Virus genome (UHGV): UHGV-1351408
Source: a virus
Direction: 5' to 3' (one strand)
DNA length: 64,000 nt
Of the stretch, positions 12,001 to 13,700 are shown piece after piece. Under the pieces are notes generated by a model. It saw nothing but the letters and a program-made list of their open reading frames with translations. It was not told the origin of the DNA and ran no database searches. Within the stretch, counting starts at the first letter, position 1; every line of letters starts with the position of its first letter. The position numbers and the translations under genes were made by a program.

Positions 12001-12325
12001 AACCGACGGGTACTCACCAGCATCACTTAAGAGTCTTTTAAAAGGGTTTTTAAGTGATGTCTGGTAAAGTATGGTTCTGTCCGGTAATGCGATGTATGCT
12101 ATGGTTTGGTGTGGGTAGTTAGTCTCAGCTACATTAAAATGAGACTTACCTTTTTAAAAGGTCTTTAAGAGGGTCTTTTAATGAGGTGGGGTCTGGTTTG
12201 GTATGGTAATGCGAGGTATGGGTCAGGTGGGGTGAGGTGTAGTTAGGTCTGGTATGGGTGGATGGTAGTAGCCACATTAAAAATCTACCAAGTTTCTAAA
12301 GAGTCTTCTGTTGAGGGTTCTTTAC
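12001..12325. repeat. composite repeat region I: two ~140-bp units (palindromic or GTCTTT-box head, GT-rich GGTNNGG body, ACATTAAAA tail)
   Basis: 10-bp perfect inverted repeat CATCACTTAA/TTAAGTGATG at 12021-12059; GGGTC at 12171, 12188, 12220; units recur at 13426-13700. Confidence 0.6.
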
Positions 12326-12365
12326 AAACAACTTAACAATCAACTAAAGTGTGGAGCTAAATGCT

Positions 12366-12953
12366 ATGAAACTGTTAAATATCAAAATCACTGGTACTCG
12401 TCCTTTCCTGAGCCACGCTGATACACTGTCAGACCCATTAAACCCTCTGACAAAATATCACAAGTCTCTGTCCAGTAAACGTAAAAAGACCGACGAAGAC
12501 TATGCGCTCTTAGCAGAAAGCCAACTGGTAACTTCTTGTTACTACGATGAGCAGCTAGGTTTTGTTATGAACGGTGAGATGATTGAGGCTTGCATCAAGT
12601 CTGGTGCGAAACTCAACAAACTTGGTAAGGTGATTGACCGAGCCATTATGCTGACAGATGTAGTCTTCCCAATGACTATCAAGAACTGTCCAGCAAACCC
12701 ACAAGAACTTGCTAAGAATCCAGACTTTATCTATGCTAAGTCTGTTAAGATTGGTACAGCACGAGTTATGAGCTACCGTCCAATCTTCCGCGACTGGTCT
12801 GTAGAGTTCGGTTTGATGTTCGATGAAGAGCAAATCACCAAAGAGGAACTCCTGATGGTTCTGGAAAATGCTGGTAACCTTTGTGGTGTAGGTGATTGGC
12901 GTCCACGCTTTGGTCGTTTTTCTGTAGAAGTTATTTCAGAAGGTAATGTTTAA
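12366..12953 (+). CDS. hypothetical protein
   Basis: ORF 12351-12953; ATG at 12366 preferred. Confidence 0.5.
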
Positions 12954-12955
12954 TT

Positions 12956-13396
12956 ATGAATACAAAAGCATTAGCAGCAAAGTTTAGTTACGGTGACACT
13001 GTATCACATTCTGAGATGGACACCTTCTTAGGTATTGTGAAGCCAACTTATCAAGGTGACATTGTTAAGTACGAAGATGAAATGAAGGCTTATGCACTTA
13101 CACGTCTAAACCGACTTGAGAAGTTTATTGAGAAACTTCTTAAAGAAGAGAAGATTTATCTGGTTGCTTCAATGGGTGTTGGTTATCGTGTGGTTGAACC
13201 TAAACATCAAGCAACTATTGCAAAACGTAAAATGTCTGGTAAGATTGGTCGTGCTTTAAAACAAGCCACTCAAGCAATTGAGAATGTGAACACTATGGCA
13301 CTTAGTCATCAAGAACGTTCACGACTGATTGAACAGCAAAACCATTTAGCTGCTATGAAAGCTAACATTAACAAGCAACGTAGAAAACCTTTCTAA
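12956..13396 (+). CDS. hypothetical protein
   Basis: 146 aa. Confidence 0.5.
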   Translation: MNTKALAAKFSYGDTVSHSEMDTFLGIVKPTYQGDIVKYEDEMKAYALTRLNRLEKFIEKLLKEEKIYLVASMGVGYRVVEPKHQATIAKRKMSGKIGRALKQATQAIENVNTMALSHQERSRLIEQQNHLAAMKANINKQRRKPF

Positions 13397-13405
13397 GTTG
13401 ACTAG

Positions 13406-13431
13406 GTAGCCTCTTCGGAGGCTCCTTTTTA
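13406..13431 (+). terminator. rho-independent terminator
   Basis: AGCCTC-TTCG-GAGGCT hairpin followed by CCTTTTT. Confidence 0.6.
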
Positions 13432-13700
13432 AAAGGTCTTTAAACAGGGTCTTTTAATGAGGTTTGTTATGGTCAGGTATGGTGTGGTGTTGTAAAGTTT
13501 GGTGCGGTCAGGTTAGGCTTGGTATGGGTAGTTAATCGAAACTACATAAAAATTCGATTACATCACTTAAGAGTCTTCTAAGAGGATTTTTAAGTGATGT
13601 CTAGTCAGGTATTGTCCGGTATGGCAAAGCATGGTTCGGTTCGGCAGGGCTTGGTATGGAAGGATGGTAGTAGCCTTATAAAAAATCTGCCAAATAAGCT
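13426..13700. repeat. composite repeat region II (same unit types as region I, reversed order)
   Basis: Head AAAAGGTCTTTAAACAGGGTCTTTTAATGAGGT; palindrome CATCACTTAA/TTAAGTGATG at 13561-13599; GT-rich body. Confidence 0.6.

Follow-up and report, generated by a model that had tools for sequence, protein, structure and literature searches.

Repeat units around a two-gene cassette of a Felix O1-like phage as probable VIPR guide RNA genes

A two-gene cassette set between GT-rich repeats, found in a 64,000-nt stretch of viral DNA (UHGV virus genome UHGV-1351408; the whole stretch is referred to here as the window), very probably represents a VIPR locus of type II (SUSP1 clade) in the genome of a Felix O1-like phage, with the four repeat units around the cassette being its vrRNA genes. 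VIPR, for Viral Interference Programmable Repeat, is an RNA-guided gene silencing system of phages that was described in two 2026 bioRxiv preprints (10.64898/2026.04.26.720920 and 10.64898/2026.04.26.720927). According to these, a VIPR locus consists of vipr, which encodes an ancestral RAMP protein (a minimal RAMP homologue of ~20 kDa), a vap gene and vrRNAs of ~100 nt. The locus in the window is already described in kind, being a near-identical member of a characterised clade.

The most direct evidence comes from the two proteins. In a PDB sequence search, the product of the open reading frame (ORF) at 12366-12953 matched the ‘SUSP1 Vipr protein’ (36pp, chain 36pp_D) over residues 1-195 with E=8.5e-129, and it is identical to the SUSP1 gene product at 193/196 positions (98.5%). 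The residues to which the structural preprint assigns GGY reading, holding of the skipped base and clamping of the non-target strand (H17, D177, R138, W178, R179, E71, M72, C173, K33, R39, K82 and K88) are all conserved in the Vipr of the window, as is G87; position 175 is a valine in both the window and SUSP1, where the text of that preprint has T175. The second ORF, 12956-13396, is equally close to the gene that follows vipr in SUSP1 (146/147 residues, 99%), which the preprints name vap1 and for which they predict a role in DNA binding. Family resources identified neither gene: Pfam, NCBIfam and PADLOC gave no match, the second ORF having a sub-threshold Pfam match only, and PHROGs returned nothing but families of ‘unknown function’ (phrog_5926 for vap1).

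The window is a Felix O1-like myovirus (Ounavirinae), and the region 11900-13800 matched 243 phage records at 80-99% identity, nearly all of them from Felixounavirus and its relatives.

RNA architecture of the repeat units

From 5′ to 3′, the locus comprises the DNA ligase gene, a promoter, units A and B, an extra hairpin, two tightly packed ORFs, a terminator, units C and D, and the next promoter (Table 1). The intergenic regions 11957-12365 and 13397-13783 contain two units apiece, each 128-143 nt long, and the four units share a mean identity of 71% when aligned. A first-pass annotation made from the letters alone had already recognised two composite regions bracketing the ORFs 12366-12953 and 12956-13396, and had divided each unit into a head, a GT-rich body and an A-rich tail. 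This anatomy is correct: units A and D have CATCACTTAA...TTAAGTGATG heads, units B and C a GGTCTTT box, and the tails are of the ACATTAAAA type. The promoter it saw firing into the first region is real as well, and its sequence is identical in SUSP1, in FO1a (a Felix O1 derivative) and in EC6. The order of the units, described as reversed between the two regions, is so for the heads but not for the tails, where A pairs with C and B with D. Its body of GGTNNGG heptamers has to be abandoned, the actual period being 5 nt with the consensus YNNGG. In unit B, for example, GGT starts at 12185, 12190, 12195, 12200, 12205 and 12215, then at 12221, 12226 and so on; elsewhere in the window, GGT-rich spots are glycine codons within ORFs.

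A unit thus described consists of a head hairpin of 16-20 bp containing G-U pairs, 11-14 YNNGG pentamers and a 3′ H-type pseudoknot. This is the published architecture of a type II vrRNA, for which the preprints give 9-16 YNNGG repeats with a conserved GGY and a hypervariable NN and, for the SUSP1 clade, a pseudoknot capping the 3′ end. The repeat counts of the four bodies (11, 14, 13 and 12) lie inside the published range. The bodies are G+U-rich and C-poor (G 34-50%, C 5-15%) and keep a 5-nt register. A comparison of 36 units (nine phages, three satellites) shows that Y and the second G persist over tracts of up to 20 repeats, while the NN dinucleotides differ between homologous units. FO1a and EC6 illustrate this well, as the flanks of their units are near-identical and the NN codes unrelated.

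The tails show covariation. A set of 16 distinct tails (nine phages, three E. coli elements) has 90.9% of its cells paired overall and 100% in stem S1, of which the variants GTAG/CTAC, GTGG/CCAC and AAGG/CCTT occur; stem S2 is found as AGTCTCA/TGAGACT, AATCGAA/TTCGATT, GGTAG/CTACC and GGTAG/CTGCC. Both sides change in 9/11 tail pairs, 3/4 S1 pairs covary, and the covariation score was reached in 0/500 shuffles. When the partners are slid by 1-3 columns, pairing falls to 27-40%. The tail of vrRNA B is of the same type as that of SUSP1 vrRNA1.

The heads are strand-specific structures. Each forms a continuous hairpin of 16-20 bp that needs 3-6 G-U pairs, so that the full fold exists on the plus strand only and just the outer 10 bp can pair on the minus strand; RNAalifold additionally detects compensatory changes between the two head types. 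Taken together, the features of heads, tails and bodies point to RNA products that are read from the plus strand. Among the roles offered by the first-pass annotation, a ‘structured leader or sRNA’ was the only one in the right direction, the units being genes for small guide RNAs. An Rfam scan of 11000-15000 gave chance matches only (E>=1) and no CRISPR repeat, ribozyme or other family, and literature searches on Felix O1 repeats and noncoding RNA turned up nothing on these units.

Table 1. Features of the locus, with positions in the window; gene and vrRNA names follow the VIPR assignment.
Feature	Position	Strand	Details
DNA ligase gene	10817-11956		Pfam
Sigma-70-like promoter TTGACA-16-TATACT	11963-11990	+	near-consensus, 11/12 in consensus scan; upstream of first vrRNA array
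Head hairpin 1, before vrRNA A	12020-12060	+	19 bp, 5 G-U pairs
vrRNA A guide tract	12060-12114	+	11 repeats; NN: CT AA AT TC CC AA GA AT AT TT GT
vrRNA A tail pseudoknot	12115-12146	+	S1 12115-12118/12129-12132; S2 12121-12127/12140-12146
Head hairpin 2 (B/C type), before vrRNA B	12147-12188	+	
vrRNA B guide tract	12187-12257	+	14 repeats; NN: GG CT TT AT AA GA AT (bulge) CA GG GA GT TA CT AT
vrRNA B tail pseudoknot	12258-12289	+	S1 12258-12261/12272-12275; S2 12264-12268/12285-12289
Head hairpin 3, no guide tract after	12292-12329	+	just upstream of vipr ribosome-binding site; -13.6 kcal/mol, z=-3.1
vipr	12366-12953	+	195 aa; RAMP-type, predicted RNA-guided DNA-binding filament protein
vap1 (vipr-accessory protein)	12956-13396	+	146 aa; starts 3 nt past vipr stop
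Intrinsic terminator hairpin after vap1	13408-13423	+	T-run overlaps 5′ arm of head 4
Head hairpin 4 (B/C type), before vrRNA C	13424-13462	+	
vrRNA C guide tract	13463-13527	+	13 repeats, unbroken 5-nt register; NN: TT AT CA AT GT GT AA TT GC CA TA TT AT
vrRNA C tail pseudoknot	13528-13559	+	S1 13528-13531/13542-13545; S2 13534-13540/13553-13559
Head hairpin 5 (A/D type, 19 bp), before vrRNA D	13560-13600	+	
vrRNA D guide tract	13600-13659	+	12 repeats; NN: CT CA AT CC AT AA AT TC TC AG TT AT
vrRNA D tail pseudoknot	13660-13691	+	S1 13660-13663/13674-13677; S2 13666-13670/13687-13691, includes G-U pair
AT-rich inverted repeat, closing array	13692-13739	+	19-nt arms; contains next promoter
Promoter TTGACA-17-TATTTT for ORF 13784-14167	13711-13739	+	

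The inverted repeat that closes the array lies directly 3′ of vrRNA D, with the -35 box of the following promoter inside it, and is conserved in FO1a, EC6 and SUSP1; it could at once terminate the array transcript and occlude that promoter.

Guide targets and proposed function

In the preprints, the SUSP1 clade is proposed to silence a satellite that parasitises the phage. When complete E. coli genomes were searched with the locus by BLAST, matches were confined to vrRNA-like tails within chromosomal islands, and these islands belong to a satellite-like element of ~11.5 kb (L014, 700-12200; further copies L015-L020). A 3.5-kb core of the element has matches in 482 of the 5,426 complete E. coli genomes, and strains 2018-166 and 57_142493 are among its carriers. 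The element carries genes for serine recombinases, an HNH endonuclease, tape measure and baseplate. At the protein level, the baseplate gene shares 94% identity with 26789-27337 of the window, and the tape-measure gene is 44% identical to 28219-28878. The copies examined occupy three or more integration sites (ymdF/wrbA, yecN/yecD and tonB/yciI), have no Vipr or Vap gene and, in 3/9 cases, contain one headless vrRNA-like unit.

For the target search, the NN dinucleotides of each guide were joined by single wildcards (i.e. a 1-nt skip, as in the methods of the preprint) and run against both strands of nine satellite loci totalling 341 kb. Guide C matches at 24/26 positions, with its first 12 NN perfect, and guide D at 22/24, both in the same 183-aa gene of the satellite; TTCATGCAAATGGTAGTTAAATTAGCGCAATATTT is an example of a predicted C/D target site. 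Guide A matches a 235-aa satellite gene at 19/22. The predicted sites lie at L017 5977-6014 for C, L014 4210-4244 for D and L017 7982-8013 for A. When the order of the NN dinucleotides was shuffled, the real score was equalled in 0/200 cases for C, 0/200 for D, 1/200 for A and 199/200 for B, and skips of 0, 2 or 3 nt gave background scores of 16-18 only. In each of the three target matches (A, C and D), codon position 3 is the one skipped, a pattern also described in the preprint, and the guides of six related phages have 90-100% matches in the same satellites. The published 1-nt-skip rule was thereby reproduced independently, on guides derived from raw sequence. At least three guides (C, D and probably A) thus appear to be aimed at satellite phage genes, and because they match these genes under the 1-nt-skip rule, satellite silencing as proposed for SUSP1 fits the window phage too.

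The C and D targets sit in strain-specific E. coli satellites that were reached through BLAST and the local scan; an exact-pattern scan of IMG/VR yielded neither. As for self-targeting, guides A, C, D and full-length B have no match of >=75% within the window, and 7-dinucleotide halves of B give background-level matches.

The proposed mechanism combines these predictions with the published biochemistry. By analogy with SUSP1, each unit would give rise to an RNA of ~90-105 nt made of 11-14 YNNGG pentamers and a 3′ pseudoknot cap. Cryo-electron microscopy (cryo-EM) in the preprints shows one Vipr protomer per repeat, with GGY buried and NN presented, the latter pairing with DNA in such a way that every third target base is skipped, and an R-loop triplex silencing transcription. 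In the window phage, Vipr protomers would accordingly bind one per repeat and build a helical filament, which would present the NN dinucleotides for pairing with double-stranded DNA under the same skip; the resulting triplex would block transcription, Vap1 would enhance the effect, and the locus would silence a parasite of the phage. In SUSP1 itself, ~100-nt vrRNAs are reported to be expressed, to co-purify with Vipr and to silence, on the strength of small-RNA sequencing, pull-down, GFP, and lambda cro and cI assays.

The two loci have much in common: their place behind the DNA ligase gene, their promoter, head hairpins, YNNGG tracts, tail types and the satellite family as predicted target. 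They differ in the layout of the array. Counting vrRNAs with an nhmmer tail profile gives one upstream and three downstream of vipr in SUSP1, in agreement with its small-RNA sequencing, whereas the window has two on either side; layouts of 1+2 to 2+3 are seen among relatives. None of the four guide codes is shared with SUSP1, and here one guide has a 1-nt register break and another is partly eroded.

Beyond its own clade, the system resembles the crRNA-Cas7 (RAMP) filaments of Class 1 CRISPR, in that, according to the preprints, RAMP-fold protomers polymerise on a guide RNA, thumb domains break up the guide-target duplex at regular intervals and the variable guide is capped by a conserved structured end. 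In contrast to these, VIPR lacks a repeat-spacer array, adaptation genes and a protospacer adjacent motif, it silences rather than cleaves, and its guide is non-contiguous, with 2/5 RNA bases pairing with 2/3 DNA bases. A CRISPR array was rejected for the window, where the repeat unit is 5 nt with two variable bases and no CRISPR repeat family appears in Rfam. Nor were cas genes found in the three ORFs of 12366-14167 by Pfam, NCBIfam or PADLOC; upstream, Pfam finds only the DNA ligase.

Several points weigh against the assignment. Guide A is eroded, with a degenerate first G in five repeats and the second G lost in TATGC (12095-12099), and its best match of 19/22 is just marginally above the shuffles; its mismatches to the target fall on these degenerate repeats. 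Guide B breaks register by 1 nt after repeat 7, where a 6-nt repeat, TATGGG, carries an extra G at 12222 (12217-12227), a bulge that recurs in the homologous unit of phage JLBYU32; its best score in the nine satellites, 18/28, is background, and exact-pattern scans allowing a 1-nt or 2-nt skip at the bulge found no target in 185,579 GTDB species-representative genomes or in IMG/VR. An intrinsic terminator separates vap1 from vrRNAs C and D, and the promoter scan places no strong promoter downstream of it. Finally, expression, processing, Vipr binding and silencing are all carried over to this phage from SUSP1, and the mechanism rests on two preprints that have yet to pass peer review.

Alternative readings of the repeats

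The units might instead be the ends, or the recombination scars, of a mobile two-gene cassette and have no RNA function of their own, a reading close to the mobile-cassette boundaries that the first-pass annotation listed among possible roles. The cassette is indeed an indel flanked by units. In FO1a and EC6, both cassette genes are absent and a single unit sits between the ligase gene and the homologue of ORF 13784; this unit combines a head of type A with a tail of type D, the expected product of recombination between units A and D. The 83-kb genome of FO1a contains no Vipr or Vap homologue at all (best E=0.35), and unit copy number among relatives varies from 1+0 to 2+3. Yet the cassette comes with no integrase, transposase or target-site duplication, and the covariation, the hypervariable NN in a conserved GG frame and the specific targets all show selection on an RNA product. 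In SUSP1, moreover, the units are reported to be expressed and to bind Vipr. The idea that the units are mere element ends is thus very improbable; they are better regarded as functional RNA partners of the first cassette gene, and homologous recombination between functional repeats, by which the cassette was lost or gained, is the better reading of the indel.

Even less credible is a lagging-strand priming hotspot or origin, possibly aided by an R-loop on the G-rich non-template strand. The first-pass annotation had pointed to GGGTC as enriched, and the phage does encode a primase-helicase (2210-4192, minus strand). GGGTC occurs four times (12171, 12189, 12220 and 13447) against 0.34 expected from the window background, the bodies have a strong GC skew, and a strong promoter fires into region I, i.e. 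the upstream repeats. Dinucleotide-preserving shuffles nevertheless leave no enrichment beyond the local G+T-rich composition, neither for GGGTC (P=0.08 in region I, P=0.49 in region II, the downstream repeats) nor for the T7 primase site set GGGTC|TGGTC|GTGTC (P=0.46 and P=0.48), and nothing ties the primase-helicase gene to these regions. The GGGTC and TGGTC sites arise from GGY repeats and hairpin stems, 2/4 GGGTC sites lying within the stems of head hairpins. An origin would also leave the G-U pairs, the compensatory changes, the strict 5-nt register and the NN matches to satellites unexplained.

The GGY triplets at 5-nt spacing resemble the binding-site geometry of TRAP, and (GGNNN)n could form two-tier quadruplexes, so that small RNAs acting independently of Vipr—a sponge for a TRAP-like triplet-reading ring protein, or G-quadruplex RNAs—might be envisaged, all the more as vipr-less phages keep one unit. 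This, too, is hardly believable given that a sponge needs no NN spelling satellite genes with a codon-phased skip, and that the protein of the adjacent gene binds exactly this repeat by cryo-EM, one protomer per pentamer, according to the preprints. The sponge and the two-tier G-quadruplex beads were dropped once the Vipr match had explained the 5-nt period, as were pairing with anti-Shine-Dalgarno or tRNA-CCA sequences, an R-loop origin resembling T4 oriF or the pentamers of immunoglobulin switch regions, and T4 rnaC/rnaD-like stable RNAs.

Head hairpins and orphan guides

With the units taken as vrRNA genes, the head hairpins most likely represent a processing or punctuation signal that frees single vrRNAs from an array transcript. 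They are read as such because a unit without its head measures 87-103 nt, matching the size of mature vrRNAs, because a fold-based scan of nine phages found such a hairpin before every vrRNA, because satellite-borne vrRNAs have none, and because hammerheads occupy the same position in other VIPR types. Head hairpin 3, which no guide tract follows, also precedes vipr in SUSP1.

The same type of hairpin recurs at a second place in the window. Head-type hairpins lie in the spacers of a cluster of 26 tRNA genes (44970-45004, 42367-42396, 45982-46019 and 44306-44402, all on the minus strand) and share the G-U-rich sequence type of the vrRNA heads, UUUAAGRGNYUU-loop-AAGRGNCUUUAAA. One 16-bp example stops 4 nt before tRNA-Arg and another covers the entire spacer between tRNA-Gln and tRNA-His, which suggests a common RNA-processing signal for tRNAs and vrRNAs. 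Short intergenic motifs related to the head stems (AAGAGNCTT / AAGRGGNCTTT) are additionally found at 57100-58550 and 48780-48860, with weak nhmmer E values of 0.03-5, and may represent a phage-wide regulatory or terminator-like motif. In the passages searched, the VIPR preprints cover neither the hairpins before vrRNAs nor the similar ones between tRNA genes, and the first preprint has no mention of RNase, maturation or precursors.

Punctuation by structured RNA has precedents. RNase III processing hairpins sit between the early genes of phage T7, and the heads described here are comparable as predicted double-stranded RNA hairpins of about two turns that would punctuate a polycistronic phage transcript, cleavage being putative in the present case. 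Unlike the T7 hairpins, their stems keep a conserved sequence (UUAAGAGUCUU / AAGRGGUUUUUAA), and this may reflect recognition by a specific factor. Arrays of vrRNAs interspersed with hammerhead ribozymes, shown for other VIPR types in fig. S19 of the first preprint, likewise have a structured RNA, presumably a separator, between consecutive vrRNAs. The spacer of the window phage differs from these in being a plain G-U-rich hairpin of 16-20 bp without a ribozyme signature; any cleavage would have to come from a protein nuclease, for instance RNase III.

A further observation concerns the single units of vipr-less relatives. Such orphan units are located in at least FO1a (L008, 4640-4880) and EC6 (L010, 4640-4880), and LF82P3 has a single unit too (L006, 2201-2336). 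The orphan vrRNA gene looks complete: the promoter and a head hairpin are present, the YNNGG repeats number 9-11 and stay in register, and the pseudoknot is of the D type. The orphan guides have no target above background in nine E. coli satellites, and erosion of their GG frame is not clearly different from that in guides of vipr-carrying phages. Single orphan vrRNAs in vipr-less Felix O1-type phages are not covered in the passages of the VIPR preprints that were searched. One may speculate, if with considerable doubt, that the hairpins are a dedicated maturation signal at which arrays are cut by the nuclease that also processes the tRNAs of the phage (host RNase III or a phage enzyme), and that the orphan vrRNAs are functional rather than relics, either loading onto Vipr supplied by a relative in a co-infection or acting as decoys that titrate the Vipr of a rival.

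VIPR is a recently reported form of RNA-guided DNA recognition, with a non-contiguous guide and an ancestral RAMP reader, and has been proposed as a forerunner of CRISPR. The window offers a clean natural example, and Felix O1-like phages, to which it belongs, are used for typing and biocontrol of Salmonella and E. coli. In well over 100 deposited Ounavirinae genomes, two ‘hypothetical’ genes and ~800 nt of ‘intergenic’ DNA can now be labelled as vipr, vap1 and vrRNA. What remains as new material are the specific target predictions, the occurrence of head-type hairpins in both the array and the tRNA cluster, and the guides that persist as orphans. The hairpins and orphans, together with the guide whose register is broken, bear on how such arrays mature and evolve.

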